This document shows, in pieces, positions 14,638-54,757 of a stretch of DNA of 64,000 nt. The number at the start of each line of letters is the position of its first letter. Within the stretch, counting starts at the first letter, position 1. The notes under the pieces are model-generated. The model was not told where the DNA came from. It did no database searches and saw only the letters and a list, made by a program, of their open reading frames with translations. A program made the translations under genes and the position numbers. Source of the DNA: Alphaproteobacteria bacterium (GTDB lineage: Bacteria > Pseudomonadota > Alphaproteobacteria > Caulobacterales > Parvularculaceae); assembly GCA_030433215.1 (NCBI GenBank), contig JAUIMC010000009.1:62849-126848 (forward strand), written 5' to 3'.

Positions 14638-14656
14638 AAGTATGGGAGAAGGTTGG

Positions 14657-22162: not shown

Positions 22163-22198
22163 GGTGATCTTTCTTGTTTGCCATCATGCGCCGGCTGA

Positions 22199-29780: not shown

Positions 29781-30887
29781 ATGAAGATGGACCGTCGCAC
29801 CTTGCTGGGAGCGGCTTCCGCCAGCGCCGCTGCAGGCGTTCTTGGCGGGGCGGGTTCCGCCGCCGGGGCCGCGCCGAAGGACCAGATCCGCATCGGCGTC
29901 GAAGAAGCCTTCTCAACCCAGGAACACATGAAAGCGATGCGCGATTTTGTCGACGCGCATCCGGAAGTGACGCGCTTCGATTACAAATTGTGGCGCATGA
30001 TCACCTCGAACCTGAAGGCGGACACGCCGCGCAGGCTGCTCGACTTAGCCGATATGCGTCTGAAGGAAATGGACGAGTATGGCGTGACCATGCATGTCCT
30101 TTCGCTGACCTCGCCCGGCGTGCAGATGCTCGATCCGGATGTGGCGGTGGGCGTCGCGCAAAGCGCCAATGACGAACTCGCCGAAGTGATCGCCCGTCAC
30201 CCCACGCGCTTTGGCGGTCTTGCGACCATAGCCCCGCAGGAGCCGGAAAAGGCGGCGTCGGAGATCGAACGCGCCAAGACGAAGCTGAAGCTCAACGGCG
30301 TCGTCATCAATTCCCACACCAACAACGAATATCTCGATAATCAGAAATTCTGGCCGATCCTCGAGGCTGCCGAGGCGATGGACATGCCGATCTATATCCA
30401 TCCGCGCACGCCTTCGGACCAGATGCGCGCGCCCTTCGACGACTACAATATGGGCAGCGCCTTCTGGGGCTACGGCATGGAGACGTCGACCCATTTCGTG
30501 CGCCTGATGATGAGCGGCGCCTTTGACCGGTTCCCCAAGCTGACGACCGTCCTTGGCCATATGGGCGAGGCCGTGCATTTCTGGATCTGGCGTCTCGATT
30601 ATATGAGCGCGCCGGGCGTTGCGCGCGGGGAAACGCCGATCAAGCTTCTGCCCAGCGAATATCTGCGCCGCAATCTGCGCATCACCACCAGCGGACAGGA
30701 AAACCCGGCGGCGCTTCGTTACTCCATCGACGTCCTGGGCGCGTGGAACGTGATGTGGGCGATCGACTATCCCTATCAGGAAATGCCCTCCGCGGTGCGC
30801 TTCATGGACAATGCGCCGCTGACGCAGGAAGAGCGCGACGCGGTCTACTGGAAGAACGCCGCCCGCACTTTCAACATCGACCTTTAG
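29781..30887 (+). CDS. ligW: Tat-signal LigW-like non-oxidative aromatic acid decarboxylase (amidohydrolase_2)
   Basis: DRRTLLG Tat signal; IGVEEAF, LSLTSPGVQM, INSHTN, IYIHPR, FWGYGMETST, LGHMGEA..FWIWRLDY, NVMWAIDYPYQ, all matching 5-carboxyvanillate decarboxylase LigW as recalled. Confidence 0.82.
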   Translation: MKMDRRTLLGAASASAAAGVLGGAGSAAGAAPKDQIRIGVEEAFSTQEHMKAMRDFVDAHPEVTRFDYKLWRMITSNLKADTPRRLLDLADMRLKEMDEYGVTMHVLSLTSPGVQMLDPDVAVGVAQSANDELAEVIARHPTRFGGLATIAPQEPEKAASEIERAKTKLKLNGVVINSHTNNEYLDNQKFWPILEAAEAMDMPIYIHPRTPSDQMRAPFDDYNMGSAFWGYGMETSTHFVRLMMSGAFDRFPKLTTVLGHMGEAVHFWIWRLDYMSAPGVARGETPIKLLPSEYLRRNLRITTSGQENPAALRYSIDVLGAWNVMWAIDYPYQEMPSAVRFMDNAPLTQEERDAVYWKNAARTFNIDL

Positions 30888-30923
30888 AACCCGCGCCAGG
30901 CAGAGCGCAAAGGAGAAGCCGTC

Positions 30924-32051
30924 ATGCATCGCAGGAATCTTTTGGGACTAGCGGGCGCCGCCGGGGCCGCCGCCATGCTGCCGGGCGTGGCGCGGGCGCA
31001 AAGAAGCCTCGAGGAAGGTCTTCCCGTGCCGACGGGCAATTATCGCCGCATCGGCACGGAGGCGGCTTTTGCGACCCAGCCCCAGCTCGAAGCGTTTCGC
31101 GCCGTGCGCAAATATCTCGAAGACAGCCCGGAACTCGCCTTCGCCGGCATTCTCCTCGGCGACAACGCCTACGCCAAGGATATGACCCCGCGCCTTCTCA
31201 ATATCGGCGAAGGGCGGATCGCGGAAATGGATTCGGACGGCGTCGCGATGCAGGTCTTGTCGCTGACCTCGCCGGGGGTTCAGATTTTCAGCGCCGACAC
31301 GGCGACGGCCGTCGCGCGCGAAAGCAACGACATTCTCGCCGAGGCGATCCGCAAGAACCCGTCGCGCTTCGCCGGCCTCGCGGCCATTGCCCCGCACGCG
31401 CCGGAAGAGAGCGTCAAGGAGATGGAGCGGGCGGTCAACAAGCTCGGCCTGAACGGCTTCATCGTCAATTCGCACACCGACGGCGAATATCTCGACCAGG
31501 AAAAATTCTGGCCGATCCTCGAAGCCGCCGAAGCGCTCGACCGGCCGATTTACATTCATCCGCGCACCTTGCCGAAAGAGGCGCTCGGGCCCTTCAACGC
31601 CTATGGCCTGCAAGGCGCGTCCTGGGGGTTTGCGGTGGAGACGGGCACCCACGGCATGCGCCTTTTGTTCAGCGGCGCCTATGACCGCTTCCCGGGACTG
31701 AAAGTCGTCCTCGGCCATATGGGCGAGGGCATTCCTTACTGGGTCTACCGTTTCGATCACATGTATGAAAAAGCCAAAGCCAATTGGGGCACCGGCGGGC
31801 TCAAGGAAAAGCCGAGCCATTACCTCAAGCGCAATATGATGATCACCACCAGCGGCATGTTCTCCGAGCCCGTGCTGAAATACTGCATGGAAGTGATCGG
31901 CGCGGACAACATCATGTGGGCGGCGGATTATCCGTATCAGGCCAATCGCGAAGCGGGCGTTTTCCTCGACGCTGCGGATATTTCCGAAGACGAGAAAGTC
32001 AAGATTTACTCAGGCAACGCTGAGCGCGTCTTTCACCTTAGAAAAGGCTGA
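30924..32051 (+). CDS. Second Tat-signal LigW-like decarboxylase
   Basis: MHRRNLLG Tat signal; IGTEAAF, LSLTSPGVQ, VNSHTD, IYIHPR, LGHMGEG, IMWAADYPYQ; tandem paralogue of 29781-30887. Confidence 0.8.
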   Translation: MHRRNLLGLAGAAGAAAMLPGVARAQRSLEEGLPVPTGNYRRIGTEAAFATQPQLEAFRAVRKYLEDSPELAFAGILLGDNAYAKDMTPRLLNIGEGRIAEMDSDGVAMQVLSLTSPGVQIFSADTATAVARESNDILAEAIRKNPSRFAGLAAIAPHAPEESVKEMERAVNKLGLNGFIVNSHTDGEYLDQEKFWPILEAAEALDRPIYIHPRTLPKEALGPFNAYGLQGASWGFAVETGTHGMRLLFSGAYDRFPGLKVVLGHMGEGIPYWVYRFDHMYEKAKANWGTGGLKEKPSHYLKRNMMITTSGMFSEPVLKYCMEVIGADNIMWAADYPYQANREAGVFLDAADISEDEKVKIYSGNAERVFHLRKG

Positions 32052-32179: not shown

Positions 32180-33112
32180 TTATTGCGCGCCGGTCTCCCA
32201 GGGCGTCGGCATGTAATAAGGCAGCGAAGTCGCCACGCCTTCGGCGCGCACCACCGTATCGCCCTCGATCTTCACAAGCTCGGCCACAAGCCGGCTCATG
32301 GGATAGGGGCGTTGCAGCGTCGCCGTTTCGCCGCCCACCGTCGGGAAGGTCGCCTGCTCGGCGGGCAGGTCCTGCACGCTGATGGCGAGCACGAGGCCGC
32401 GGCTGCGGTCGACCACAGGAAAGCGCCGGTCGCGAATGCGGTTCACCGGGGCGAAGAGGCCCGCTTCGAAAGCGGACGCGCAATGCGGTTCCGGCGGCGT
32501 TACATCGAGCTCCGCCGAGGTGATCGCAACGCCGTTCTCCACCATCTCGCAGGACGGCGCGAAGTCGGCGAGGAGGGCGCCGTTATTGCGCTGCTTGGTG
32601 GCGAGATAGGCGTTGGCGAGGTCGACGAGACGCTCGCGCGAACGCCGGTCGCCCCGCGAGACGGTTTGCGTCATCTCTGGCGAGATTGCGAACTCGGTCG
32701 CCTCGCCGAACGGCATCGGCCAGCGCTCGCGCGCCGCGATGACTTCGATCTCTTCGATGTCGCCTCTGGGGGCTTTCAGCCGGACGGCGCCGAAGGACGC
32801 CTCGTCATGGTCCCAGATCGTGCCGAACCACACGACATTGCCGGTTTCGGTGTCGGCCATCGCAAAGGCTTTCTGACCGGTGTCTTCGCCGGCCGATCCC
32901 CACCAGCCGTCGCCGATCATCAAGGAGACGTTGTTTTCGGTGAACAGCACCGGATCGGCCCAGGGGAGGCGGCGAAATTCCTGGTCGCCGATGGCGTCCA
33001 GCGTTTCGTCAGCCAGTTTCAGAAGGCAGGACTCGTTGCAGCGCTGGGCGGCTGCGGGCGCGGCGACGACAAGCGCGGCGGCGCCGGCGAGGAGAGCAGT
33101 AAGTTTCCGCAT
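32180..33112 (-). CDS. Secreted uncharacterised CxxxCL-family protein, type beta (NTF2-like fold suspected)
   Basis: Start ATG 33112 overlapping the upstream TAA; signal MRKLTALLAGAAALVVAAPAAA; CNESCLL, LPWAD...TENNV, RIRDRRFPVVDRSRGLV, LPYYMPTPW. Confidence 0.8.
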   Translation of the reverse strand: MRKLTALLAGAAALVVAAPAAAQRCNESCLLKLADETLDAIGDQEFRRLPWADPVLFTENNVSLMIGDGWWGSAGEDTGQKAFAMADTETGNVVWFGTIWDHDEASFGAVRLKAPRGDIEEIEVIAARERWPMPFGEATEFAISPEMTQTVSRGDRRSRERLVDLANAYLATKQRNNGALLADFAPSCEMVENGVAITSAELDVTPPEPHCASAFEAGLFAPVNRIRDRRFPVVDRSRGLVLAISVQDLPAEQATFPTVGGETATLQRPYPMSRLVAELVKIEGDTVVRAEGVATSLPYYMPTPWETGAQ

Positions 33113-34086
33113 TATTTGTCTCCTTCCGCCCAGGGCGAATGCATCCCGTAGGGCACGTAATCGAAGATCGCCTCGATGGTGTAGATCTCGCCGTCGATGA
33201 TCTTGAAGGCTTCCATGATGGTCAGCGAGTTGGGCCATTTCAGCAGGGTCTTCATGGTGCGCCCGTCTGTCAGCTCATACTCGTCGAAGGTGTTGGCGTG
33301 ATCGAAGAAGTTCATGCCGACGACAATGCCGCGCTCTTCATCGATGATCGGGTAGCGCCGTTCGCGCAACTCCTTGTTGATGCGGTAAATGCCGAGCTTG
33401 AACTGGGCCTCGCAGCCCTCGGCGACCGACGCCGAGTTATTCGAGTTTTCGGTCGCGGCCGTTGTCGAGATGCCGTTTTCTAGGCGTGAACAATCTTCCT
33501 TGAAATCCGCGAAGACCTGGCCGTTGTTGAATTCGACAGTATTGAAATAGGAATCGGCGACGGCGCGCAGGCGCGGGCGCGGGCGGCGTTGCTCTTCGGT
33601 GAGGGCTTCGGTCCAGGCCGGGTGATGCGGCTCCTTGCCGGTGCCGTGGATCAGCGGCATGCCGGTGATGCGCGCGATCACTGTTTCGGCCTCGCTGATC
33701 TCGTGTTCCTTGTTCACATGAAGACGGATGGCGAGAAAGACCAGCTTGTCATGTTCATAGGCGTGGCCGAACCAGGCGACATTGCCGGTCAGCGTGTCGG
33801 AAGCGATCATGCCGTCATCCGGGGCGGCCGCGCTCACTGTCGCCCACAACCCCTTGCCGATCGGCATTTCGACGCTGTTTTCCGTGAACTTGATGTCTTC
33901 GGAAAAGTCAGCCTGCGACGGGTCCTTGGCGTTAAGCGCCGCAACATAGGATTTGGCGAAAGATTCAAGGCAGGCGCGGTCGCAATCGCCGCGAGGCAGC
34001 GCGCTTTCCTTTCCGTAAGATTGCGCCGCCGCAGGGGCGGCGGCGGCGAGGCCCAATGTGAGGGCCGCCAGCGCATGACGCAGCAT
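33112..34086 (-). CDS. Secreted uncharacterised CxxxCL-family protein, type alpha (possibly DUF8021; label unverified)
   Basis: Signal peptide; CDRACL, FTENSV, RLENG, CEAQFKLGIY, RERRYPIIDEERG, FFDH, WPNS, EAFKI, YVPYGMHSPW. Confidence 0.82.
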   Translation of the reverse strand: MLRHALAALTLGLAAAAPAAAQSYGKESALPRGDCDRACLESFAKSYVAALNAKDPSQADFSEDIKFTENSVEMPIGKGLWATVSAAAPDDGMIASDTLTGNVAWFGHAYEHDKLVFLAIRLHVNKEHEISEAETVIARITGMPLIHGTGKEPHHPAWTEALTEEQRRPRPRLRAVADSYFNTVEFNNGQVFADFKEDCSRLENGISTTAATENSNNSASVAEGCEAQFKLGIYRINKELRERRYPIIDEERGIVVGMNFFDHANTFDEYELTDGRTMKTLLKWPNSLTIMEAFKIIDGEIYTIEAIFDYVPYGMHSPWAEGDK

Positions 34087-34284: not shown

Positions 34285-34812
34285 ATGCGCAAAATCTTGA
34301 TGACGATGGTCTTCAGCATGCTGGCGATTTCCTGTGCGCCGGACGGTCAGGGAACGGCGCTCGAAGAGCGCGTGCGCCGGCTTGAGGACGAGAAAGAGAT
34401 CCGCGCGCTGCTGGTGCGCTATGGCGAATATCTCGATGCGAAGGATTACGCCGGCTACGCCTCGCTCTTCGCCAGCGACGGCGTGTCGACCACCGGCTTC
34501 GGCAGTGCAACAGGACCGGCGGCCATCGAGGTGCTATTGGAAGAGAATATGGGCGCGCCGCCGCCCGGCTATATCAATAAGGACCGGCTCCACCTGATGA
34601 CGACCATGATTGTCGATGTCTCGGGCGATGCTGCGACCGCGCAGTCGCGCTATACGGTTTTCGATAAATCCGAGGGAGGACGGCCTGTCCCTTTGCATGC
34701 CGGACGATATGCGGACGTGCTTGTGCGCGAAAACGGGGCGTGGAAACTGAAATCACGGACTTCGGCCGGCGTCATTCCCTACCGGGCGCCGCCGCAAGCC
34801 GGTAAAAACTGA
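34285..34812 (+). CDS. SnoaL_4/NTF2-like lipoprotein (short type)
   Basis: Lipobox LAISC; RLEDEKEIRALLVRYGEYLD, RLHLMTT, GRYADVLVRENGAWK. Confidence 0.85.
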   Translation: MRKILMTMVFSMLAISCAPDGQGTALEERVRRLEDEKEIRALLVRYGEYLDAKDYAGYASLFASDGVSTTGFGSATGPAAIEVLLEENMGAPPPGYINKDRLHLMTTMIVDVSGDAATAQSRYTVFDKSEGGRPVPLHAGRYADVLVRENGAWKLKSRTSAGVIPYRAPPQAGKN

Positions 34813-34910
34813 GAAAGGCCGGCCCTTGTGGCGCAAGTCTGGGGTTCTCTCACGGCAATGAACTGCACAGGGCGAGGACGGACAAACGAAGCTTGGGAAT
34901 ATCTGGAGAG

Positions 34911-35504
34911 ATGACGATGCGGACTGCATTTCTGGCTATCGCTTTCGCCCCGCTCATGGCGGCCGCCTTGCCGGCCTGTTCGGCGGGCAACGCTGCGAAT
35001 GAAGAACTCGCGCAGCGCGTCCAGGCGCTTGAAGACGAAAAAGAGGTCAAGCGGGTGCTGGTCGAATATGGCGAGTTCCTCGATGCGCGCGACTATCATG
35101 CCTATGCGTCGCTCTTCGCCAGCGACGGCGTCTGGAGCGGCGGCTTCGGCACCTATACGGGGCCGGCGGCGATCGAGGCCATGCTCGAAGAAAATATGGG
35201 TTCCCATGCGGATGATTACATCAACAAGGAAAATTTCCACCTGAACACGACCATGGTCGTCGATGTGGACGGCGACACGGCGAAAGCGCGCTCGCGTTAT
35301 CTGTTCTTCGTCGCCTCGCCGGAAAACCGGCCTGTGGTCGCGCTCGCAGGGCGCTATGAAGACGTTTTGGTCCGCGAGGACGGGGCCTGGAAAATCAAGA
35401 CCCGCAAATCCCATGGCGTGATCCCTTACCGGGACGGCAACAAGCCGCCCCCGGCCCAGCCCCCGGCGGACATCAGCGACGCCCTGGACCGGGACCAGGA
35501 CTGA
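34911..35504 (+). CDS. SnoaL_4/NTF2-like lipoprotein (short type), tandem paralogue
   Basis: Lipobox LPAC; ALEDEKEVKRVLVEYGEFLD, NFHLNTT, GRYEDVLVREDGAWK. Confidence 0.85.
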   Translation: MTMRTAFLAIAFAPLMAAALPACSAGNAANEELAQRVQALEDEKEVKRVLVEYGEFLDARDYHAYASLFASDGVWSGGFGTYTGPAAIEAMLEENMGSHADDYINKENFHLNTTMVVDVDGDTAKARSRYLFFVASPENRPVVALAGRYEDVLVREDGAWKIKTRKSHGVIPYRDGNKPPPAQPPADISDALDRDQD

Positions 35505-35663: not shown

Positions 35664-35692
35664 CCCGCCAGTTTAGTTCGTAAACTGGCGGG
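35664..35692. repeat. Perfect 12-bp inverted repeat between convergent genes
   Basis: CCCGCCAGTTTA-GTTCG-TAAACTGGCGGG. Confidence 0.6.
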
Positions 35693-35761: not shown

Positions 35762-36196
35762 CTAGAGGCCGGCGGGCAGGTCCGCCGTCACTTCACGCCG
35801 CTTGAAGCGCCAGCCCTCCGGCGTGGGGACGATAATGTCGCTATAGCTTCCGGCGATCGCGATCCGGAGCCCGGTGTCGCTCTCGCCCCCGTTTTCACGC
35901 TGTTCGATGAGCATCCAGCGCGACCAGGCGGTCGCGTCCCGGCCGCGCATGGTGATCGCGATGCTGCCGAAAATATGGACGCAAGGCGGCGTCGCCGCGA
36001 ATTCGCGCTCGACGAAAGCGGCCAGCGCCGCGCGTCCGGCGATGACCCCGTAGCGCTCGCCGCCGATCCATTCGCCGTCCGGCGCGAACAGAGCGGCCCA
36101 GCCGGGCGCGTCCTTCAGATCAAGCAGGCGGCCATATTCAGCCATCAGGCGCCGGATCGCTTCGGCATGCTCCGCATAGGGAATTTCCTCGGACAT
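35762..36196 (-). CDS. SnoaL_4/NTF2-like protein (short type, no signal peptide)
   Basis: EAIRRLMAEYGRLLD, CVHIFG, GSYSDIIVPTPEGWRF. Confidence 0.8.
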   Translation of the reverse strand: MSEEIPYAEHAEAIRRLMAEYGRLLDLKDAPGWAALFAPDGEWIGGERYGVIAGRAALAAFVEREFAATPPCVHIFGSIAITMRGRDATAWSRWMLIEQRENGGESDTGLRIAIAGSYSDIIVPTPEGWRFKRREVTADLPAGL

Positions 36197-36387: not shown

Positions 36388-37377
36388 ATGAGAAAATTCC
36401 TCAACAACCCCGCCGACGCCGTCGATGAAAGCCTGCGCGGTTTTGCGCGTTGCCATGCCGATCTCGTGGAGCTCGTGGAGCGGCCGCGTTACGTCAAACG
36501 TCAGCGCCTGACGCAAGGCAAGACGGCGATTATCTCCGGCGGCGGATCGGGTCATGACCCGCTTCACGCCGGGCTCGTAGGGCGCGGCATGCTCGACGCG
36601 GCTGTGCCGGGCGAAATTTTCTCCTCGCCGTCAGTAGAACAGATCCTGGCGGCGGCGGAAGCGGTCGGCGGCGAGGCGGGGCTTTTGTGCCTCATCAAGA
36701 ATTATTCCGGCGACATCATGAATTTCGAACTTGCGATGGAGATGTTCGACCGGCCCCATGCGAGCGTCATTATCGAAGACGATATCGGCGCGGCGGGCGG
36801 CGATGACACGGTTGGCCGGCGCGGCGTCGCCGGCACGGTCGTGGTCGAAAAGCTCGCCGGGGCCGCCGCTGAACGCGGCGAGGGGCTCGAGGCCTGCGCC
36901 GAGATCGCGCGCCGGGCTGCGGCGGCGACGCGCACTATCGGCGTGGCGCTCGGCGGCTGCCAGGTTCCGTCCGCGGACAAGGCCAACCTTGAGCTTGCGC
37001 CCGGCGAGATGGAAATCGGCATCGGCATTCATGGCGAGCCCGGGCGGCGGCGCGCGCCCATCGCGCCGGCGAATGAGATCGTCGAGGAGCTTATCGAGGC
37101 GCTCATCGCCGATTTTTCTCCGTCTCCTGACGATCCGCTGCTGCTGTTCGTCAACGGGCTCGGCGGAACCCCGCCCATGGAAACCTATATCATCTACGAT
37201 GCGGCGGCGCGCATGCTGGCGGCGCGGGGACTGACCGTCGCCCGCTCGCTCGTTGCGCCGCTGGTGACTTCGCTCGAAATGCCGGGGGCGTCGATTACGC
37301 TGACGAAGATGGAGGACGGGTTCCTCGATCTCTGGGACGATCCGGTGGTGACGCCGGGACTGAGATGGGGCGCATGA
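36388..37377 (+). CDS. dhaK: PEP-dependent dihydroxyacetone kinase subunit K
   Basis: SGGGSGHDPLHAG, GEIFSSP, KNYSGDIMNF, GRRGVAG, EIGIGIHGEPG, TSLEMPGASIT. Confidence 0.92.
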   Translation: MRKFLNNPADAVDESLRGFARCHADLVELVERPRYVKRQRLTQGKTAIISGGGSGHDPLHAGLVGRGMLDAAVPGEIFSSPSVEQILAAAEAVGGEAGLLCLIKNYSGDIMNFELAMEMFDRPHASVIIEDDIGAAGGDDTVGRRGVAGTVVVEKLAGAAAERGEGLEACAEIARRAAAATRTIGVALGGCQVPSADKANLELAPGEMEIGIGIHGEPGRRRAPIAPANEIVEELIEALIADFSPSPDDPLLLFVNGLGGTPPMETYIIYDAAARMLAARGLTVARSLVAPLVTSLEMPGASITLTKMEDGFLDLWDDPVVTPGLRWGA

Positions 37378-38027
37378 GCCTCGCGCAATCCCATAATCCC
37401 GCCGAGAATACCGGCGCCGCGCTCGAGCTGCTCGACGTGCTTTGCACTCTGTTGCTTGGCGCCGAAGACGAGCTCAACGGGCTCGACCGCGCTATCGGCG
37501 ACGGCGACCATGGCGGCAATCTCGCCCGCGCGTCGCGCAGCCTGTCAGAGCTTCGTCCCGAACTCGCTGAGCTTTCCATGGGCGAGGCCGTGACGCGCGC
37601 CGGCCGCGCGGTGGTGATGAGCGTCGGCGGCGCTTCGGGCCCGCTTTACGGAACCCTGCTGATGGAAATGGGCAAGGCGCTGCCTGACGAGCCGGGGCCT
37701 GGCGACTGGGCCGCGGCTTTTGCGGCGGGCGTCGACGGCGTCGCCCGGCGCGGCCGCTCCGCTGAGGGCGACAAGACCATGCTCGATGTGCTCGCGCCGG
37801 CGTCGCGCGCGCTTTCGGAAGAAGCGTCCGCAGATTTGCACGAAGCGCTCGCGGCGATGCGCGCGGCGGCGGAAGACGGCTTTGAAACATCGCGCGGCTT
37901 GCGCGCGAAACGCGGACGCGCCGCCTATGTGGGCGAGCGGTCCGTCGGACATGACGATCCCGGAGCGCGGTCGGCGCTGTTGTGCGTCGGTGCGGTTGCA
38001 GATTTTTTAGGGGAGAACAAGGGATGA
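37374..38027 (+). CDS. dhaL: Dihydroxyacetone kinase ADP-binding subunit L
   Basis: LDRAIGDGDHGGN, VGGASGPLYG, GDKTMLDV, RGRAAYVGERSVGHDDPGA; ATGA overlap with dhaK. Confidence 0.92.
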   Translation: MSLAQSHNPAENTGAALELLDVLCTLLLGAEDELNGLDRAIGDGDHGGNLARASRSLSELRPELAELSMGEAVTRAGRAVVMSVGGASGPLYGTLLMEMGKALPDEPGPGDWAAAFAAGVDGVARRGRSAEGDKTMLDVLAPASRALSEEASADLHEALAAMRAAAEDGFETSRGLRAKRGRAAYVGERSVGHDDPGARSALLCVGAVADFLGENKG

Positions 38028-38410
38028 GCGTGGCGCTTCTCATCGTTTCGCATTCCGCCGACGTCGCGCGCGGCACGGCGGATATGGCCCGGCAGATGGC
38101 CGGCGCCGATTTGTCCATCGCCTGGACCGGCGGCAATCCCGATGGCGGTCTCGGCACGAGCCTCGCCGCGATTACCGAACAGCTTGAAGCCGTCTGGCGG
38201 GAGGAAGGCGTCGCCATTCTGGTCGATGTCGGCGGCGCGGAGATGAATTCCGAAATGGCCATCGAACAGTTCGACAAGGCGAAAGCGAAGAAAATCCGGA
38301 TATGTCAGGCGCCGCTGGTGGAAGGCGCGATCATGGCGGCGGCGGAAGCGGCGTCCGGCGGCGGCCTCGACCAGGTGTGCCGCGCAGCAGAGGAATTTTC
38401 GCACGCGTGA
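38024..38410 (+). CDS. dhaM: DHA kinase phosphotransferase subunit (EIIA-Man-like)
   Basis: LLIVSHS (phospho-His), GG..DGGLGTS, LVDVGGA, APLVEGA. Confidence 0.9.
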   Translation: MSVALLIVSHSADVARGTADMARQMAGADLSIAWTGGNPDGGLGTSLAAITEQLEAVWREEGVAILVDVGGAEMNSEMAIEQFDKAKAKKIRICQAPLVEGAIMAAAEAASGGGLDQVCRAAEEFSHA

Positions 38411-38412
38411 CC

Positions 38413-38730
38413 ATGTCGAGTTCTCAGCCTTGCGATGCCGAATGGAGGCAAGCCACCCTGACCGTCGTCGGGGCGCATGGTCTTCATGCGCGTCCCGCGA
38501 TCCGGTTTTCCCGCGTCGCGAGGGGGTATTCCGCGCGCATTCAGATCTGCGTCGCGGACGATGCGCGCTGGGTTGACGCCAAGAGCGTGGCGAAGGTGAT
38601 GGGCCTTCAGGTCGAGTCGGGCAGGAAAATTCTATTGCGTGCGGCCGGGGACGACGCCGAGGCGGCGCTGGCGGGCCTGCGCCAACTGATCGAGACGGAC
38701 CTCGCCGGCGAAGGCGAAGATGGCGGATGA
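38413..38730 (+). CDS. ptsH: HPr phosphocarrier
   Basis: GLHARPA (phospho-His), VDAKS, LRAAGDDAEAAL. Confidence 0.9.
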   Translation: MSSSQPCDAEWRQATLTVVGAHGLHARPAIRFSRVARGYSARIQICVADDARWVDAKSVAKVMGLQVESGRKILLRAAGDDAEAALAGLRQLIETDLAGEGEDGG

Positions 38731-40274
38731 CTCGGCTCCCGGGAAAGGTCGCGTCGCAGGGCGTCGCCTCCGGAACGCTGCGGCGCGACGCTGTGGCCGC
38801 GCGGAGCGCAGGCAGGCCTGCTGACAGCGTGGCAGGCGCCGTTATCGAAGCGGCATGGCAGTTGCGCGCGCTGCAAGCCGCCGCGACTAGTCTGGGTTCG
38901 GACATTCTCGAATTTCAACTCGCCCTGCTTGAGGATGACGGGCTTGTCCTCGAAATGGTCCAGAAGGGCGCCGCGCATGGCGATGCCGCGCGCGCCATCG
39001 CCGAGGTTCTGGAAGAGCAGATCGCATCCTATCGCGCTGCGGCGGATGCGCGGTTTGCGGCGCGCGCGGCCGACCTTGAGGATCTCAAAAGCCGTCTTCT
39101 CGGCGCGCTGAAAGGCGCGGCGGCGCCGGCAAGGGCGCTCCCTGCGGGCACGATCCTCATTGCAGAAGAGATGACGCCGAGCCGCTTTCTTGAGCTCGAC
39201 CGCGCGAAAATCGCCGGAATCGTTGATCAGAAGGGCAGCGAGACGAGCCATGTCGCCTTGCTGGCGCGCGCGGAAGGCGTGCCTATGCTGGTCGCCGCCG
39301 GGCCTGTCGCGGCGGAATGGGAATCGCGTCCCGCCCTGCTCGATGCGGCGCACGGGGAGCTTGTCCTCGATCCCGATGCGGCGCTCATCCGCGATCGCGC
39401 CGGTCAGGCTTCTGCACAGGATGTTCCGTCATCGGAAGGCGAAGGACCGGCGGTTCTGTCCGATGGCGAAACGGTGCGGGTCAATCTCACCGTTAATGCG
39501 CTCGCGAGCCTAGACGAGGCACCGCCCGAATGGTTCGACGGCATCGGTCTCGTCAGGACCGAGCTCTTGATTACCGATGCGGAAGAAGTTCTGAACGCCG
39601 GGCGTCAGGCGAGCCTCTACCGGCCGCTGTTCGACTGGGCGCGGGAAAAGCCGGTGACCATCCGCCTGCTCGATGGCGGCGGCGACAAACAGGTGCCCGG
39701 CTATGCGCCGCCTCCGGGCGGCGGCGGTTTTCTCGGCGTGCGCGGCGCACGGCTTTTGATGCGGCGCGGCGATGTCCTGCGCGCGCAGCTCGCGGCGATC
39801 CTTGACGCCGCGGAAGGCCGGCCGGTGCGAATCATGGCGCCCATGATTACCTTGCCGGAGGAGATGCGGTTCTTCAGAACGGAGCTTGACCGCGCCATAG
39901 ACGCGTCCGGGGCGGACCGGGTGCAGGCGGCGCTGGGCATGATGGTGGAAACCCCCGCCGCGGCGCTCGACATCGATCGTTTCGATGCGGATTTCTTCGC
40001 TCTCGGCACGAATGATCTCGCGCAATATGTCCTGGCCGCCTCGCGCGACAGCGAGGCTTTGCCGCTTGGCGGGGAAATCCCGCCGGCGGTGCTTGAGCTT
40101 GTTCGGCGGGTCGTCGAACATGGCAGGAATAAAGGGCTTGCGGTGTCCGTTTGCGGCGATGTCGCGGCGTCTGAGGAAAGCCTTGGGCGGTTTCTCGCCT
40201 GCGGGGTGCGCTCTTTCAGCATCCCTTCGCGGTTTGCGCCCCGCTTCAAGCAGTATATCAGGACAGGGCTGTGA
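38727..40274 (+). CDS. ptsI: PTS Enzyme I (PEP-protein phosphotransferase)
   Basis: GSETSHVALLARA (phospho-His), GIGLVRTE, RLLDGGGDK, LGVRGARL, GMMVETP, GTNDLAQY, VCGD. Confidence 0.9.
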   Translation: MTRLPGKVASQGVASGTLRRDAVAARSAGRPADSVAGAVIEAAWQLRALQAAATSLGSDILEFQLALLEDDGLVLEMVQKGAAHGDAARAIAEVLEEQIASYRAAADARFAARAADLEDLKSRLLGALKGAAAPARALPAGTILIAEEMTPSRFLELDRAKIAGIVDQKGSETSHVALLARAEGVPMLVAAGPVAAEWESRPALLDAAHGELVLDPDAALIRDRAGQASAQDVPSSEGEGPAVLSDGETVRVNLTVNALASLDEAPPEWFDGIGLVRTELLITDAEEVLNAGRQASLYRPLFDWAREKPVTIRLLDGGGDKQVPGYAPPPGGGGFLGVRGARLLMRRGDVLRAQLAAILDAAEGRPVRIMAPMITLPEEMRFFRTELDRAIDASGADRVQAALGMMVETPAAALDIDRFDADFFALGTNDLAQYVLAASRDSEALPLGGEIPPAVLELVRRVVEHGRNKGLAVSVCGDVAASEESLGRFLACGVRSFSIPSRFAPRFKQYIRTGL

Positions 40275-40338
40275 CAATGAATAATCAACAAGGCGCGCAT
40301 GTGAAACGCGGTCGGGCCGGGAGACGAGGAGAGCCAGC

Positions 40339-40755
40339 TTGCAGGGCGAAGCAAAACAGGAGCTGATCCGGGCTTATAAACTGCTGCTCAGGGAAGCCTT
40401 GGAATCACGGCCTTCCGGCATTCGCTTGCGGATCGCCGACACGATCGGAAAGAACAAGAGCTTCATCTCCCAGATCACCAATCCCAAATACAAGACCCCG
40501 CTGCCCGAAAAATATGTCGAGCCGATTCTCGACGTCATCCACCTGACGCCGGCCGAGCGGGATCGTTTCCTTGACGTCTATCGCCGGGCGCATCCGCGCG
40601 CGCGCCCCCAGCCGCCGGAAAAGGCGGGGCCGGCGAGCACGCGCACCTTGCATATTGAGCTGCCTTCGCTCGGCTCCAAGGCGCTCGATCAGAAAGTCGA
40701 CGCGCTGATCACCGACCTGGCGCGCCAGCTCAACGAGCTGATCGAACAGCGCTGA
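40339..40755 (+). CDS. Uncharacterised XRE/HTH-like protein following the dha-PTS operon
   Basis: TTG start after GAGGAG; RPSGIRLRIADTIGKNKSFISQITNP resembles an XRE helix-turn-helix. Confidence 0.65.
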   Translation: MQGEAKQELIRAYKLLLREALESRPSGIRLRIADTIGKNKSFISQITNPKYKTPLPEKYVEPILDVIHLTPAERDRFLDVYRRAHPRARPQPPEKAGPASTRTLHIELPSLGSKALDQKVDALITDLARQLNELIEQR

Positions 40756-40884
40756 TTCCGCATTGCACCTAAACTTTTGGGCGCAAGGCCGGTTTACTTA
40801 AGCGTGGCCGGAAGATAAACTAAACTTACTAAACAATATAAAAGCGGCCAGCTTGAAAAAAGCAGGACCGCCGGGAGAGGAAAC

Positions 40885-41400
40885 GTGGCGAGTGAAGGTC
40901 CTGCCGGGAGCAGCGGGGCGGCGCTTTCGATTGAAGACCGCCTGCGCGCCCTCGAAGACGAACGCGAAATCCGTGAACTGATTATCCGCTATGCGCAGCA
41001 TCTCGACGCCCGCGACCATAAGGGGTATGCGGAACTTTTCGCCAGAGACGGGCGCTGGTCCGGCCGCATGGGCGACGCCGTCGGTCCTGAAGCGATTGAG
41101 AAAATGCTGGTCGAGGGCCTGGGGCCGACGCCGGAAGGTTTTCGCAACACCAAGAACTTTCATCTGATGAGCAATATCCTCATCGAGATCGACGGCGACA
41201 AGGCGAAAGCCGAATCGCGCCTGGTCTATTTCGCCCGCACGAAAGACGCGCGTCCCGGTCCCATGCTGGCTGGGCGCTATTTCGACGAGTTCGTGCGTGA
41301 AGACGGGCGGTGGCGCTTCAAGTTCAGACAGGTGCTCGGGGAAATCCCAACGCGCGAAGAAGCGCCGGTGCGCACGGCGGAGGAGGACGGACATGAGTGA
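40885..41400 (+). CDS. SnoaL_4/NTF2-like protein (short type, cytoplasmic)
   Basis: RLRALEDEREIRELIIRYAQHLD, NFHLMSN, GRYFDEFVREDGRWRF. Confidence 0.85.
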   Translation: MASEGPAGSSGAALSIEDRLRALEDEREIRELIIRYAQHLDARDHKGYAELFARDGRWSGRMGDAVGPEAIEKMLVEGLGPTPEGFRNTKNFHLMSNILIEIDGDKAKAESRLVYFARTKDARPGPMLAGRYFDEFVREDGRWRFKFRQVLGEIPTREEAPVRTAEEDGHE

Positions 41401-42049
41401 TCAGCGCCGCAAAGAGTTGCAGGAGCGGCTCGCCCGCCTGCAGGACGAAGCGCAAAGGCGGGAGGATTATCTCGCGATCATCCGCTGTCAGCGCGCCTAT
41501 GGCTTTTACATCGACAAGGGCTATTGGCGCGAGGCGTCCAATCTCTTCACGCAAGACGCCACCTATGAGCAGGGCGTCGACGGCGTTTACGAAGGGCGCG
41601 AGCGCATCCACGAATTGATCGTAAAGTTAAGCGGCGGCAATCCGGGGCCGGGCCTGCCTTTCGGCCAGCTTAACGAACATTTCCAGTTGCAGCCGGTGAT
41701 CACGATTGCGCAAGACGGCGCCAGCGCGCAAGGCCGCTGGCATGCGCTCTCCATGACCGGGCAATATGGCGAACACGCCGAATGGGGCGAGGGCGTTTAC
41801 GAAAACCGCTATCGCAAGGAAGACGGCGTCTGGAAAATTTCCGCCCTGCGGTTCTATCCCAATTTTGTCGCGCCCTATGAAGGCGGCTGGGCGTCGCTGA
41901 AACCCGTCGAGGGCGACTGGCGCAGTCCTGAGCTTGCGGACTTTCCGTCCGACAGGCCGCCGAGCGAAACCTACAAACCTTATCCCGACATCTTCACGCC
42001 GCCCTTTCATTACGTGCATCCGGTCACTGGCGAGGAGGTGAAGTCATGA
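41393..42049 (+). CDS. Long-type SnoaL_4/NTF2 protein, subtype A (cytoplasmic)
   Basis: AGGAGG RBS; YGFYIDKG, NEHFQLQP, YENRY..EDGVWKI, FVAPYEGGW, PPFHYVHPVTG. Confidence 0.85.
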   Translation: MSDQRRKELQERLARLQDEAQRREDYLAIIRCQRAYGFYIDKGYWREASNLFTQDATYEQGVDGVYEGRERIHELIVKLSGGNPGPGLPFGQLNEHFQLQPVITIAQDGASAQGRWHALSMTGQYGEHAEWGEGVYENRYRKEDGVWKISALRFYPNFVAPYEGGWASLKPVEGDWRSPELADFPSDRPPSETYKPYPDIFTPPFHYVHPVTGEEVKS

Positions 42050-43380
42050 GCGGGGAAGCAACGCTCGACGTCCTCGAAGCGCATCTCGAAGCGGCGGAAT
42101 TACGCCTGGCGCGGCTCGCCTCCCATGAAGCGGTGGAGCGCCTGCAACGCAGCTACGGTTATTATGTGGACAAGGGCTTATGGTCCGCGGCGGCCGATCT
42201 GTTCGCCGAGGACGGAACCTGGGAATGGGGACAGAGCGGCGTTTACAAAGGGCGCGAGCGCATCCGCGCGGCGCTGGCCCTGCGCGGTCCCGAAGGTCTC
42301 GCCCAGGGCGAGCTCAACACGCACTTCACCTGCCAGCCCATCGTCACGGTCGCCGAAGACAACATGACGGCGAAGGCGCGCTGGCGCGCCGACATGCAGC
42401 TTTGCAAGAACGGCAAGGGAAGCTGGGCTGAAGGCACCTTCGAAAACATGTACGTCAATGATGACGGCGTCTGGAAGATCGCGAGTCTGCATTTCTATGT
42501 CACGGTGGAATGCGACTACGATCTCGGCTGGGTCGTGGGCGACATGCCCATGGAAGGCCCGAGCGAGGAGCTTCCCCCCGACGAGCCGCCGACGGAAGTC
42601 TACCAATCGCTGCCCGAGGTGTATCTGCCGGCCTATCACTATCCCAATCCGGTGACCGGCGCGCAGCCGAAAAAGCCTGTGCTCCCTGATCTTCCCGCCG
42701 GCGATGATCTCGGCGCCGACATTTCCGCGCTCTCTGAACGCATCGAACGGCTTGAGGATACGCGCGCCTGCGAAAAGCTTCAGCGCGCCTATGGCTATTA
42801 TGTCGACAAGGCGATGTGGGACGATGTGGCCGATCTCTTCGTTGACGAGTCTACGCTGGAGATCGGCGGGCGCGGCGTCTTTCTCGGCAAGAAGCGGGTG
42901 CTCGAATATATGGGCATCGGCCTTGGCCCCACGGGGCCCCAGCGCGAACAGATCATCAATCACCAGCAGTTTCAGGGCATCGTCAGTGTCGCCGAAGACG
43001 GCAAGACGGCGCGCGGGCGCTGGCGCGCCTTCGTCATCGGCGGCAGCTCATGGGCGCCGGTGAACTGGGGCGATTGCCTTTACGAGAACCATTACAGGAA
43101 AATCGACGGCGTCTGGGTGATGGACAAACTTCATGCGCCCTTCACCATGTACACGCTCTATTCGGAAGGCTGGCATAAAACGACGACGCCCAATACGCGG
43201 CCCGAAAGCTTTCCGCCGCCGCCGGATCTGCCGCCGACGGTCATCTATCTGACCTATCCGAATTATTATTGCGAACCTTTCCACTATCCCAACCCGGTGA
43301 CGGGCAAGGACGCGCCGCCTCCCAATCCTGCGGCCGGCGGCGTCGCGAACATGGCCGACTTCGCAGACGATGAGCGCTGA
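42046..43380 (+). CDS. Tandem long-type SnoaL_4/NTF2 protein, subtypes B+C fused (cytoplasmic)
   Basis: Two repeats, each with YGYYVDK...H...Q...EN.Y...DGVW... and a HYPNPVTG tail. Confidence 0.87.
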   Translation: MSGEATLDVLEAHLEAAELRLARLASHEAVERLQRSYGYYVDKGLWSAAADLFAEDGTWEWGQSGVYKGRERIRAALALRGPEGLAQGELNTHFTCQPIVTVAEDNMTAKARWRADMQLCKNGKGSWAEGTFENMYVNDDGVWKIASLHFYVTVECDYDLGWVVGDMPMEGPSEELPPDEPPTEVYQSLPEVYLPAYHYPNPVTGAQPKKPVLPDLPAGDDLGADISALSERIERLEDTRACEKLQRAYGYYVDKAMWDDVADLFVDESTLEIGGRGVFLGKKRVLEYMGIGLGPTGPQREQIINHQQFQGIVSVAEDGKTARGRWRAFVIGGSSWAPVNWGDCLYENHYRKIDGVWVMDKLHAPFTMYTLYSEGWHKTTTPNTRPESFPPPPDLPPTVIYLTYPNYYCEPFHYPNPVTGKDAPPPNPAAGGVANMADFADDER

Positions 43381-44761
43381 CGCCACCCCCGCGCTGTCGT
43401 CGAAAACCCCGCCCGACTGGGCGGGCCATTCCGGCAATGTGGATGCGCTGATCGACACGCCGCGGCTCAGCCGTTTGCAGATCCAGCTCTTCGCGATCTG
43501 CGCCTTCGTTCTTTTCTGCGAGGGCTACGATCTTCAGGCGCTGGCGCTCGCCGTGCCGGATATTTCGAGCGAGTTCGGCATCGCGGCGAGCGATTTCAGC
43601 ATTGCGCTTTCGGCCAGTCTCTTCGGCATGGCGATCGGCGGCGCGGGGTTCGCGCCCATGGGCGACCGGGTGGGCAGGAAGCCCATGCTGATCCTGGCGA
43701 TGCTTCTCACCGGCGGGTCGACGCTGGCGGCGCTGATTTATCCGTCGGCCTGGTGGATCGCCCTGTGCCGCCTCGTCACCGGCATTGGCCTCGGCATCAC
43801 CACCGTCAACACCGCCGCCATCATGGGCGATTACGCGCCGGCCAAATGGCGCTTTTTCATCATGACCTTGCTCAACTGCTTCGTGCCGGGCGGCGCCTTT
43901 ACGGCGGCGTTCATCGCACCCGGGGTGATCGAGGAGATTTCCTGGCGGGGCATCTTCATCCTGGGCGGGGTCGTTCCCATCGGCGCCGCTGTTGTGGTCT
44001 GGCTCCTGGCGCCGGAATCCCTGAAATGGCTGGTCGCGGCCAAGCCGGGCGACAAGCGCATTGCGCGCATCGCCGGCGCTATTGCGCCGGGTCTCGATCC
44101 GGCGCGGCTGTTCCTGAAGAAAGGCGAAACGCAGGAACGCATCTCGGTGATCGGGTTGTTGTCGCGCGCCCATGCGGTCCGCACCCTCGTCATCTGGCTT
44201 GCCACGGCCAGCGGCGCCTTTTGTCTTTATCTCATGGTGAGCTGGCTGCCGACGATCTTGCGCGAGGCGCAATGGAGCACGGCCGATGCGCTGTTCGCCG
44301 CCGCGGCGGTGCAGCTCGGCGGCATCATCGGCAGTCTGATCATCGCCTGGGCCATCGACCGGAGGTTTCTGCTGGCGGGGCTTGTCGGCGGTTATGGTTG
44401 TTCCGCGCTCGCCCTCATGGGCATCGGTCTGTTGCCGGAAAGCGTGCTCGGCTGGAAAGTTCTTCTTTTCCTCACGGGCGCGGGCATTTCCGGCATTCAA
44501 GGCATCTGGATCTCCATCGCCGTGGTTCTTTATCCGCTTGAGCTGCGCGCCACGAGCGCGGGCTGGGTCGCGGCCATGAGCCGGATCGGCGCCGTCTCCG
44601 CGCCCATGGTCGGGGGCGCCGCGCTCGCCGCCAATGTCGAAGCCAGAAGCCTGTTGCTTGCGCTGGTTATCCCAATCGGCGCGTCCGTACTCGCGATCAT
44701 TTTCGCGCGCCGCCATTTCACCCCGCCGCCGCCGGTCCAGGAAGAGGGAGCGAAACCATGA
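43370..44761 (+). CDS. MFS aromatic acid:H+ symporter (AAHS; PcaK/BenK-like)
   Basis: FCEGYDLQAL, GDRVGRKP, YPLELRATSAGW...SRIGA; 12 TM helices. Confidence 0.85.
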   Translation: MSADATPALSSKTPPDWAGHSGNVDALIDTPRLSRLQIQLFAICAFVLFCEGYDLQALALAVPDISSEFGIAASDFSIALSASLFGMAIGGAGFAPMGDRVGRKPMLILAMLLTGGSTLAALIYPSAWWIALCRLVTGIGLGITTVNTAAIMGDYAPAKWRFFIMTLLNCFVPGGAFTAAFIAPGVIEEISWRGIFILGGVVPIGAAVVVWLLAPESLKWLVAAKPGDKRIARIAGAIAPGLDPARLFLKKGETQERISVIGLLSRAHAVRTLVIWLATASGAFCLYLMVSWLPTILREAQWSTADALFAAAAVQLGGIIGSLIIAWAIDRRFLLAGLVGGYGCSALALMGIGLLPESVLGWKVLLFLTGAGISGIQGIWISIAVVLYPLELRATSAGWVAAMSRIGAVSAPMVGGAALAANVEARSLLLALVIPIGASVLAIIFARRHFTPPPPVQEEGAKP

Positions 44762-45324
44762 CCGAAGCCGAACTCGAAAAACTCGCCGCCGATGTGCGCT
44801 ATCTCAAAGACCGGGCCGACATTCTCGACTGCATGAACCGCTATACGCGCGGCGCTGACCGGCTCGACATGGAATTGATGCTGAGCGCTTATCATGAGGA
44901 CGCCACCGACGATCGCGGCGCCTTTACGGGCGGGCCGCGCGAACGGGCGAAATGGCTGTTCAAGTTCCTGTCGAGCCTCGATCACGCCACCCATCACATC
45001 ACGAATTTCACCATCGATATCGACGGCGATATCGCCCATTGCGAAAGCTATGTGATTACGACGCTGATCCCCAAGGACTCGAAAGAAGCGACGCTCGGCA
45101 CGGCGCGCTATATCGACCGCATGGAGCGCCGCAACGGCGAATGGCGCATCGCTCATCGCGAGGCGGTGATGGATTTCCATATCACAGTGCCGACGTCGGA
45201 AATGCATCCGAATGTCATGACGGGCGCGCGCGACAAGACCGACCGGTCCTATGCGCGCCCGCTTACCCTGTCGCCGGAAGGCGAGGCGCGTATGCGCGCC
45301 GGCGTCAACACGCCGCGCGAGTAA
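44758..45324 (+). CDS. SnoaL_4/NTF2-like protein (short type, cytoplasmic)
   Basis: LKDRADILDCMNRYTRGADRLD, THHITN, RYIDRMERRNGEWRI. Confidence 0.85.
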   Translation: MTEAELEKLAADVRYLKDRADILDCMNRYTRGADRLDMELMLSAYHEDATDDRGAFTGGPRERAKWLFKFLSSLDHATHHITNFTIDIDGDIAHCESYVITTLIPKDSKEATLGTARYIDRMERRNGEWRIAHREAVMDFHITVPTSEMHPNVMTGARDKTDRSYARPLTLSPEGEARMRAGVNTPRE

Positions 45325-45339: not shown

Positions 45340-46221
45340 ATGCAGGTCAATGCAACAACGGCGAGCCTGGAGCGGGCGGCGCCGCGCTCGAAAAGGATCG
45401 AAGGCCTCGAGCCTTCTCGCCGGTCAAGCCTTGAACTCGGCGCCGCGCGGATCGAACGGGTGCGCGGGCTCGGCCGCCTCTATGAAGGCGCCGATGCTGA
45501 GTGCCGGCTTCTGTTTCAGACGGCCGGCGCCGCGGCGCTGACCTCGGACAGGGAGGCGGAGGCGTTTGACCTCGAGGCGGGTCACTGGGTGATCCAGCCC
45601 TTCTCCATGCTGAACATCGAACGCGGCCCCGGGTGCGAGCAATATGCGGTCGCATTCCCGGCCGGGATGCTCTCGCGCACGCTCATGGCCCATCTGCAAG
45701 GCGTTGCCGTTGCGCCTTTGCCCATCGGCGGCGCTGCGCAATTATGTCTGGAGCTCGGACGGTCCTGTCTTTCGCAGAACGAGCCGGTGAGCGCCGCCGT
45801 CGCCGAGACGCTGGGCGAGTCGCTGATTGAACTCGCCAAGCTCGCCATCATCGAACAGTCGGGCGTCAAGCGCGGCGAGACCATGCGCGAGACCGCGCGG
45901 GCGCGCATTCAGGGCTTCATTCACCGCAATTTGTCGGACCCCGATCTCACCATCGACCGGATCGCCAAGCGGATGCAGTGCACGAAACGCTATCTGCACA
46001 AGGTTTTCAGCAAGGAAGGCGAGACGCTGAACCAGTATATCTGGGCCAAGCGCCTCGATCTGTGCCGCGCGCGGCTGTCGCGCCCGGACCTTTCCGACAA
46101 GTCGATTACGGAAATCGCGTTTTCCTGCGGCTTCAGCAACGCTGCGCATTTCAGCCGCAGTTTCAGGGCCCGCTTTGGCGAGGCGCCGCGCGTCTATCGC
46201 CGCGCGGCCCTCGATAGCTAA
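45340..46221 (+). CDS. AraC family regulator (FeaR-like)
   Basis: NLSDPDLTIDRIAKRMQCTKRYLHKVF...SITEIAFSCGFSNAAHFSRSFRARFG. Confidence 0.9.
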   Translation: MQVNATTASLERAAPRSKRIEGLEPSRRSSLELGAARIERVRGLGRLYEGADAECRLLFQTAGAAALTSDREAEAFDLEAGHWVIQPFSMLNIERGPGCEQYAVAFPAGMLSRTLMAHLQGVAVAPLPIGGAAQLCLELGRSCLSQNEPVSAAVAETLGESLIELAKLAIIEQSGVKRGETMRETARARIQGFIHRNLSDPDLTIDRIAKRMQCTKRYLHKVFSKEGETLNQYIWAKRLDLCRARLSRPDLSDKSITEIAFSCGFSNAAHFSRSFRARFGEAPRVYRRAALDS

Positions 46222-50278: not shown

Positions 50279-50420
50279 GGGTCTTGTGCTGGGTTGAGGA
50301 AGAATTTGTGCAGTGCACCAATGCGGCGCCGGCAAGCTTGCCAAGCAAGGCGGTCTCATTTCATAATCTAATAATCTAATAAAAAAGCTGAGTGGGCGTA
50401 GACCGACTTGGAGGAGAGGA

Positions 50421-54753: not shown

Positions 54754-54757
54754 CCCG

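Follow-up and report, generated by a model that had tools for sequence, protein, structure and literature searches.

What is a complete dihydroxyacetone (DHA) kinase operon doing inside a gene cluster for aromatic catabolism? The question is raised by a dhaK-dhaL-dhaM-HPr-EI operon in a 64,000-nucleotide stretch of DNA (the window, to which all positions refer unless another locus is named) from an alphaproteobacterium of the Parvularculaceae (GenBank assembly GCA_030433215.1, contig JAUIMC010000009.1). The initial annotation described a self-contained phosphorelay between SnoaL genes and offered two explanations, namely salvage of a C3 fragment released from arylglycerol side chains, or assimilation of formaldehyde using a host transketolase. 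We find that the association is a fixed partnership with one subtype of lignin-type NTF2 cluster and not with NTF2 clusters in general, which is a new element. The functional link proposed at the outset is supported by conserved synteny, by co-occurrence across genomes, and by a promoter motif common to both sets of genes, and the operon is very probably a functional part of the aromatic cluster, a putative NTF2-rich module for lignin-derived aromatics with which it is co-inherited and probably co-regulated.

The five genes form one translationally coupled operon (36388-40274; Table 1), joined by 4-nt overlaps of the ATGA or GTGA type, with the ATGA of dhaL overlapping the dhaK stop. All lie on the plus strand, match their families strongly, and have retained every catalytic residue, which bears out the complete chain of the initial annotation. 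In alignments to the E. coli structures 4LRX and 1OI2, DhaK keeps the equivalents of His56, Asp109, and His218 (E. coli numbering), and its GGGSGH, NYSGD, and GIHGEPG motifs are almost identical to those of E. coli DhaK. The D-x4-D-x-D-H Mg/ADP motif of DhaL (LDRAIGDGDHG) aligns with that of E. coli DhaL, the VSHS phospho-histidine of DhaM aligns with L. lactis DhaM (PDB 3CT6), HPr keeps His15 in a GLHARPA motif, and enzyme I (EI) keeps the equivalents of His189 (TSH) and Cys502 of E. coli EI. The region is predicted to encode a working triose kinase of a known kind, dependent on phosphoenolpyruvate (PEP). Substitutions fixed in this clade set its DhaK apart from other DhaKs: V73 for C, S82 for T, GG (189-190) for TS, P299 for A, and N200-L201 in place of T-F, the last being 100% conserved within the clade. 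The host genome contains a single DhaK, DhaL, DhaM, and HPr set. Its second EI, encoded by a 795-aa open reading frame (ORF) on contig C24, is 35% identical to the operon EI, carries an N-terminal extension and is probably PtsP. The range originally assigned to the relay, 36388-40755, covers the operon, but EI ends at 40274 and the remainder holds a sixth gene, orf138, that had gone unmentioned.

A large protein search yields a tight group of DhaK sequences at 73-86% identity and a looser group at 61-65%. The homologue contigs inspected were P0002 (two samples), P0014, P0026, P0028 (Sphingobium nicotianae), P0033, P0039, and P0047. The same partners, a TonB-dependent receptor (TBDR), DUF8021, SnoaL_4, and an aromatic-acid transporter of the major facilitator superfamily (MFS), are found in 11 of the 11 clusters examined, with DhaKs 61-86% identical. 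The initial annotation had allowed for the dha operon being absent from homologous clusters; it is present in all 11 of the orthologous ones. The control set comprised 80 DhaK loci from other phyla (~50% identity, among the matches listed), with neighbors taken within 10 kb. DhaL is found at 75 of these loci, DhaM at 64, and EI at 39, and none of the 80 has a TBDR, DUF8021, SnoaL_4, or MFS neighbor. A relay with its own EI, as noted in the initial annotation, is thus commonplace. DhaKs of the proteobacterial outgroup (55-57% identity) sit with sugar-type ATP-binding cassette (ABC) transporters. A quick IQ-TREE analysis places a branch with 99% SH-aLRT support between 44 sequences, including all eight SnoaL-context DhaKs, and the other 72. 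DhaK is absent from all 60 host relatives (36 genomes of the same genus and 24 of the same order).

The homologous clusters differ in arrangement. DUF8021 is represented by two or three genes, or by one fused gene. The operon is split in locus L099, where dhaKLM-HPr lies apart from EI-orf143-SnoaL_4-DUF8021-MFS-TBDR on the other strand. Locus L098 is the minimal set, with the dha genes, MFS, SnoaL_4, two DUF8021 genes, and TBDR, and no LdpA-like triplet within 10 kb; even here the pair of the MFS transporter and the 188-aa SnoaL_4 protein is kept. S. nicotianae GCA_018603885.1 (L096) has dhaK-dhaL-dhaM followed by the orf138 homologue. This cluster lacks genes for HPr and EI, and the only EI that the genome encodes is PtsP-type, so either the kinase draws on the nitrogen phosphotransferase system (PTS) or a dedicated HPr and EI can be dispensed with. 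Dehydrogenases are often adjacent: a zinc-dependent alcohol dehydrogenase lies beside dhaK in L099 and L107, and pyrroloquinoline quinone (PQQ) enzymes are found in the window and in L100. In L098, which represents the most widespread distant relative (P0033, at least 24 contigs), the module is adjoined at positions 1-1628 of the locus by an enoyl-CoA hydratase and by a cresol-dehydrogenase/PinVW-type oxidase (FAD_binding_4) that has a cytochrome c subunit.

The initial annotation had proposed co-occurrence of dha-PTS and lsdA/SnoaL clusters as a check. We sampled the Sphingomonadaceae, to which S. nicotianae belongs, evenly at 401 genomes. Four of these have clade-type DhaK (72-81% identity), and the orthologous double-SnoaL gene, SnoaL_CC (80-83%), is found in the same four only, 4-6 kb from DhaK on the same strand. 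Full regions recovered from three of the four carriers have the gene order of the window, without the amidohydrolase pair. Another 36 genomes contain only a distant DhaK (40-45% identity). A second, distant DhaK (40-42%) is also present elsewhere in three of the four carriers (G101, G349, and G401), which suggests that the cluster copy is an extra, dedicated kinase.

The spacer between orf138 and the first gene of the downstream SnoaL operon, SnoaL_A, contains a candidate promoter-operator. When this spacer is aligned across eight clusters, a conserved GTTTAC is followed after a gap of ~20 nt by TAAACTAAAC-N3-CTAAAC, and the window copy is the only exact match in the window. Using CTAAAC-N2-4-CTAAAC with at most one mismatch as the scan motif, we found seven matches in the 3.75-Mb host genome, three of which are the window site (40816-40834) and two sites on contig C24. 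In L098 the motif lies 42-56 nt upstream of dhaK and again before the TBDR-DUF8021-SnoaL_4-MFS operon (20646). Of the five intergenic sites in L099, dhaK is preceded by two, and EI, DUF8021, and TBDR by one each; those at 14799, 18014, and 20647 lie before the aromatic operons. In the ABC-linked dha operons of L108 and L143 the motif is at the promoter, directly after a TTGACA-N17-GATATT element, and in L144 it precedes the dha operon. All five of these motif-bearing dha loci carry an orf138 homologue. Over dha and aromatic loci of this kind the density is ~16 sites in ~300 kb, versus 2 in 1.33 Mb of control loci. The shared motif suggests a common regulator of the dha and SnoaL/DUF8021/MFS operons, and we infer that in this clade the aromatic operons may have been wired into the dha regulon. 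A scan for terminator and promoter consensus sequences over 35.5-46.4 kb gave nothing above chance and no intergenic terminator.

The two C24 sites lie in the shared promoter region of a locus at 217.5-221 kb of that contig (L142 9532-12897), where two SnoaL_4 genes are divergent from a fused DUF8021 gene. This locus has no dha genes and is adjoined by an FAD-dependent aromatic hydroxylase-type gene and a catalase-peroxidase. Weak GTTTA/TAAAC pentamer pairs are also present in the window upstream of TBDR (26847-26876) and of a strictosidine-synthase-like/SnoaL/PQQ operon at 51523 (51474-51492). Beyond 26 kb, all five clusters of such pairs are intergenic.

The product of orf138 is the candidate regulator. 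It has no Pfam or NCBIfam match, and all 48 homologues are labeled 'hypothetical'. In complete clusters the gene always comes directly after EI, and in those lacking EI it comes after dhaM. It shares 42% identity (E 1e-32) with the ORF next downstream of EI in the ABC-linked operon of L108. The AlphaFold2 (AF2) model (pLDDT 79) opens at the N terminus with a bundle of five helices, which a disordered linker connects to a helix at the C terminus. The N-terminal ~85 residues resemble C.Esp1396I, ClgR, and XRE helix-turn-helix (HTH) proteins in Foldseek (probability 0.99, TM 0.6-0.68 on the target). We infer from co-occurrence that orf138 may be the cognate regulator, with putative binding to the CTAAAC motif. 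In that case it would be a candidate for an unannotated regulator family, with a candidate operator, for proteobacterial dha operons, and a new element.

How might the kinase serve the cluster? We favor the explanation that the triose on which DhaKLM acts is set free from an aromatic C3 unit, and rate it as likely as not. In such a scheme TBDR and the secreted DUF8021 proteins would handle the substrate in the periplasm and the PcaK-like MFS transporter would import an aromatic acid. In the cytoplasm, SnoaL_4 enzymes, joined in some clusters by an alcohol dehydrogenase, would then release a free C3 ketose or aldose, which DhaKLM would capture for glycolysis. Phosphate would pass from PEP to a histidine of EI, then to histidines of HPr and DhaM, to ADP on DhaL, and on to the triose. 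DHA or D-glyceraldehyde would be held as a hemiaminal on the DhaK histidine, giving dihydroxyacetone phosphate (DHAP) or glyceraldehyde 3-phosphate. The same triose, sensed through DhaK/DhaL and orf138, could feed back on expression through the CTAAAC operator.

Both the substrate and the triose-releasing step of this scheme are conjectural. The most plausible C3 source would be a glyceraldehyde- or glycerol-2-aryl ether unit. Glyceraldehyde-2-aryl ethers are known fragments of lignin, formed along with the beta-1 diarylpropane on which the LdpA/LsdA pathways act; they are a co-product of the spirodienone (beta-1) opening that yields DGPD (bioRxiv 10.1101/2023.01.24.525472), and they also arise from laccase alkyl-phenyl cleavage (PMC8157907). 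Enolization of the ether and reprotonation at C1 would give a DHA hemiketal and from it DHA and a phenol, an acid-base step of the kind that NTF2 enzymes carry out. In its most specific form the proposal is that NTF2 proteins (SnoaL_4 or DUF8021) cleave an aryl ether or arylglycerol unit, cofactor-free and glutathione-independent, into a phenol and DHA that is captured by DhaKLM, and that DHA is the inducer through DhaK/DhaL-orf138 at CTAAAC operators; taken as a whole, this is doubtful. If true, it would add a new way of cleaving ethers, and bacterial lignin catabolism would have its first branch that yields a triose. In the described bacterial lignin-dimer pathways, side-chain carbon leaves as formaldehyde, CO2, or C2/C3 acids and none gives a triose; DHA and glyceraldehyde are both absent from a 2026 review of the dimer pathways (PMC12997858). 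Our literature searches found no prior description of DHA kinase with lignin or sphingomonads and none of DUF8021, and the Haloferax DHA paper has nothing on linked ptsI or ptsH. That a triose kinase has remained tied to a single class of NTF2-rich aromatic clusters in different families leads us to predict a reaction, still to be discovered, in which a C3 sugar is set free from a lignin fragment. Cloneable candidates for it are the 188-aa SnoaL_4 protein coupled to the PcaK-like transporter and the secreted double-NTF2 DUF8021 proteins. Lignin valorization would benefit from a route by which side-chain carbon re-enters glycolysis directly as DHAP.

Several observations weigh against capture of a triose from the aromatic substrate, or against the regulatory link. 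No enzyme of the cluster is tied to triose release, and the ether isomerization is chemistry on paper. SnoaL_4 triplets and DUF8021 (~40-57% identity) occur without DhaK in six genus relatives and in genome G096, so a triose kinase is not required by most clusters of this kind. DhaK falls marginally below the NCBIfam equivalog cut-off of TIGR02363 (382 versus 406.25 bits) and EI below that of TIGR01417 (270 versus 342 bits), which makes this operon a divergent branch. The Foldseek E-values for the HTH fold of orf138 are weak (about 0.1), and its link to the motif rests on co-occurrence. Block horizontal transfer could hold genes together for a time without a functional link. Furthermore, clusters of the window type carry the motif after orf138 and before the SnoaL operon, and in none of them is it directly upstream of dhaK. 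The independent regulation of dha that the initial annotation regarded as damaging to its proposal is argued against by the shared motif, but direct co-regulation of dha itself would be confined to L098 and L099.

Formaldehyde assimilation, the second explanation of the initial annotation, would join formaldehyde from an LdpA-like lyase to xylulose-5-phosphate on the housekeeping transketolase, and the resulting DHA would be converted to DHAP in a shunt resembling the xylulose-monophosphate pathway. The SnoaL triplet directly downstream of the operon is indeed LdpA-like, and a lyase precedent exists in the release of formaldehyde by LdpA and PcfL (PMC9942872, PMC12997858). There is also a precedent in engineered E. 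coli, where methanol carbon enters through DHA synthase and the native DhaKLM and dhaLM is induced, but that strain needed yeast Das (bioRxiv 10.1101/2020.04.15.042333). Here there is no dedicated DHA synthase, with exactly one transketolase per genome (Transketolase_N) in five cluster-bearing genomes (the host and four others), and the host has a glutathione-dependent formaldehyde dehydrogenase that scores above cut-off. The minimal cluster L098 keeps the dha genes without an LdpA-like triplet nearby, and many genomes with such triplets have no DhaK. We consider the shunt unlikely, and a released C3 fragment fits better. Release of a C3 fragment is also favored by the coupling of an aromatic-acid importer to a small SnoaL_4 protein and by the secreted double-NTF2 proteins, whose fold class is that of epoxide hydrolases and isomerases.

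Another explanation is that the operon is mainly a sensor: DhaK/DhaL and orf138 would switch on the aromatic operons through the CTAAAC operator, and kinase flux would be minor. E. coli DhaK and DhaL regulate DhaR, and orf138 lacks a ligand-binding domain and so probably needs a protein partner. The motif fronts SnoaL/DUF8021 operons, including the dha-free C24 locus. A sensor alone, however, needs no dedicated EI and HPr, and the full phosphorelay here, with all its catalytic residues, is kept under selection. Since a DHA-like molecule from the pathway would still be required, this explanation, which we rate a little below the shunt, overlaps with triose capture. That the clade DhaK acts on glycolaldehyde, erythrulose, or a Hibbert-type aryl hydroxyacetone instead of DHA is lower again in our estimate; it would account for the clade-fixed N200-L201 and V73 and for a DhaK score just under the equivalog cut-off, but the three near-identical DhaK motifs speak against it. 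We give the least credence to the operon being a passenger, brought in by block horizontal transfer and used to scavenge DHA or glycerol in general. In its favor, the cluster as a whole is not found in the host genus and adjoins a low-GC island, and the outgroup dha operons serve ABC-imported substrates. Nevertheless, the association persists down to 61% DhaK identity, through reshuffling, an operon split, and loss of HPr and EI, and the perfect co-occurrence in 401 genomes and the motif common to dha and aromatic operons are further points against a passenger. In addition, three carriers already have another DhaK, and the host can use glycerol in the ordinary way without the operon, since the glycerol kinase GlpK is encoded elsewhere in its genome.

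Among known systems, E. coli DhaKLM-DhaR has the same three-subunit kinase, supplied with PEP phosphate via EI and HPr. However, in E. coli DhaM the EIIA-like domain is fused to HPr- and EI-like domains, and the protein relies on the general EI and HPr of the cell. The DhaM described here consists of EIIA alone, and the operon encodes a complete HPr and EI of its own. The E. coli regulator is the AAA+ enhancer-binding protein DhaR, in contrast to the XRE-like candidate orf138, and the E. coli and enterobacterial dha regulon has glycerol genes (glycerol dehydrogenase) for neighbors in place of aromatic-catabolic genes. The L. lactis DhaKLM-DhaQ/DhaS system is closer in its single-domain EIIA-Man DhaM (3CT6/3CR3) and short 330-aa DhaK (3CT4), but a DhaQ paralogue and a TetR-type DhaS are both lacking here, and the DhaQ model (TIGR02362) gives a much lower score than that for DhaK. 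The uncharacterized ABC-linked proteobacterial dha-PTS operons (L108, L143, and L144) are the sister group in the DhaK tree and share the whole gene set, with its dedicated HPr and EI and the orf138 homologue, as well as the CTAAAC promoter repeat. They differ in having a sugar/polyol-type ABC importer where the present clade has TBDR, DUF8021, SnoaL_4, and the aromatic-acid MFS transporter. In the xylulose-monophosphate pathway of methylotrophic yeasts, DHA kinase likewise acts downstream of formaldehyde-producing metabolism, but that kinase is an ATP-dependent two-domain enzyme working with DHA synthase, of which no paralogue is found here. The sphingomonad beta-1/beta-5 lignin-dimer pathways resemble the cluster in its LdpA-like NTF2 protein, LsdA equivalog, and LigW-type amidohydrolases, and differ in that the LdpA/PcfL, LsdA, and LigW pathways as described involve no triose or triose kinase (PMC12997858).

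Table 1 Features of the dha operon and the surrounding aromatic cluster, with positions in the window.
Feature	Position	Strand	Support or remark
TonB-dependent receptor (TBDR)	27048-29621	+	Plug and beta-barrel domains; orthologues 60-85% identical in homologous clusters
Two Amidohydro_2 genes, LigW-type	29781-32051		
Two secreted DUF8021 paralogues	32180-33238 (likely start near 33115) and 33112-34086	-	PF26061 on orthologues (precomputed annotation)
Two SnoaL_4 genes	34285-35504	second (34893-35504) +	
SnoaL_4-like gene divergent from dhaK	35762-36178 (longest ORF to 36334)	-	Orthologues 134-139 aa
dhaK, dihydroxyacetone-binding subunit	36388-37377	+	Dak1 E 1.5e-113; TIGR02363 382 bits
dhaL, ADP-binding subunit	37374-38027 (longest ORF from 37365)	+	Dak2 E 3.8e-46; TIGR02365 181 bits vs 138 cut-off
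dhaM, EIIA-Man-like domain only	38024-38410	+	TIGR02364 133.6 bits vs 98 cut-off
HPr gene	38413-38730 (alternative GTG start 38407, overlapping dhaM stop)	+	PTS-HPr E 7e-22; TIGR01003 66 vs 48
EI gene, 515 aa	38727-40274	+	PEP-utilisers_N, mobile and C domains; TIGR01417 270 bits vs 342 cut-off
orf138, 138 aa, putative small XRE-like HTH protein (candidate regulator)	40339-40755	+	Conserved position; AF2/Foldseek
Candidate promoter-operator	40792-40834	+	GTTTAC, ~20-nt gap, then TAAACTAAACTTACTAAAC
SnoaL_4 triplet, A	40885-41400	+	
SnoaL_4 triplet, B	41393-42049	+	
SnoaL_4 triplet, fused double-domain CC	42046-43380	+	
Aromatic-acid/H+ symporter-type MFS, PcaK/MhpT-like	43370-44761	+	TIGR00895 E 4e-70, below cut-off
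188-aa SnoaL_4	44758-45324	+	Translationally coupled to MFS
AraC-family regulator, FeaR-like	45340-46221	+	
Fused double DUF8021 protein	46231-48114	-	
Two PQQ quinohaemoprotein alcohol dehydrogenases	48035-50647 and 54731-56896		
Three further SnoaL_4 genes			
LsdA equivalog	58546-60018		866 bits vs 800 cut-off

The flanking SnoaL genes that the initial annotation placed on either side of the operon are real, one on the minus strand upstream and SnoaL_A on the plus strand downstream. The second domain of SnoaL_CC (residues 221-422) matches 8ABV, 8ABT, and 8ABU, which are structures of LdpA (PMC9942872), with E-values of 1e-22 to 1e-20. SnoaL_CC is LdpA-like by sequence, and its activity is predicted on that basis. 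The DUF8021 pair has no match in the local Pfam copy. The AF2 model of DUF8021 (pLDDT 82, pTM 0.83) has two tandem NTF2-like domains, and its top Foldseek matches are Lsd19, MonBI/II, LEH, and KSI. The architecture of the DUF8021 proteins (32180-34086 and 46231-48114) resembles that of the two-domain polyether epoxide hydrolase Lsd19. Sequence searches of the PDB with the 188-aa SnoaL_4 protein, the SnoaL_4-like protein divergent from dhaK, and DUF8021 gave only uncharacterized NTF2 proteins or nothing, and DUF8021 has no relative there by sequence. Among the ORFs scanned at 27-62 kb, we saw no EIIB/C, no Fe- or Zn-type glycerol dehydrogenase, and no DhaR-type AAA+ regulator. The lack of a permease and of a glycerol dehydrogenase in the initial annotation holds to this extent, but with two PQQ alcohol dehydrogenases in the same cluster, an alcohol- or polyol-oxidizing step is not missing from the neighborhood.

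We considered the higher GC content of the dha genes (0.67 versus 0.62) as a sign of separate insertion and rejected it. The same excess of 2-5 points is present in every homologous cluster, whatever the background GC, and is therefore compositional. A block of lower GC (50-56% versus ~62% elsewhere) at ~6000-26000, directly upstream of the cluster, fits an integrated island. Finally, a near-perfect palindrome, GCCAGTTTAGTTCGTAAACTGGCG, lies at 35666-35690 between the convergent SnoaL_4 genes 34893-35504 (plus strand) and 35762-36178 (minus strand). Like the operator it holds GTTTA/TAAAC pentamers, and it may serve as a bidirectional terminator or as a further binding site.

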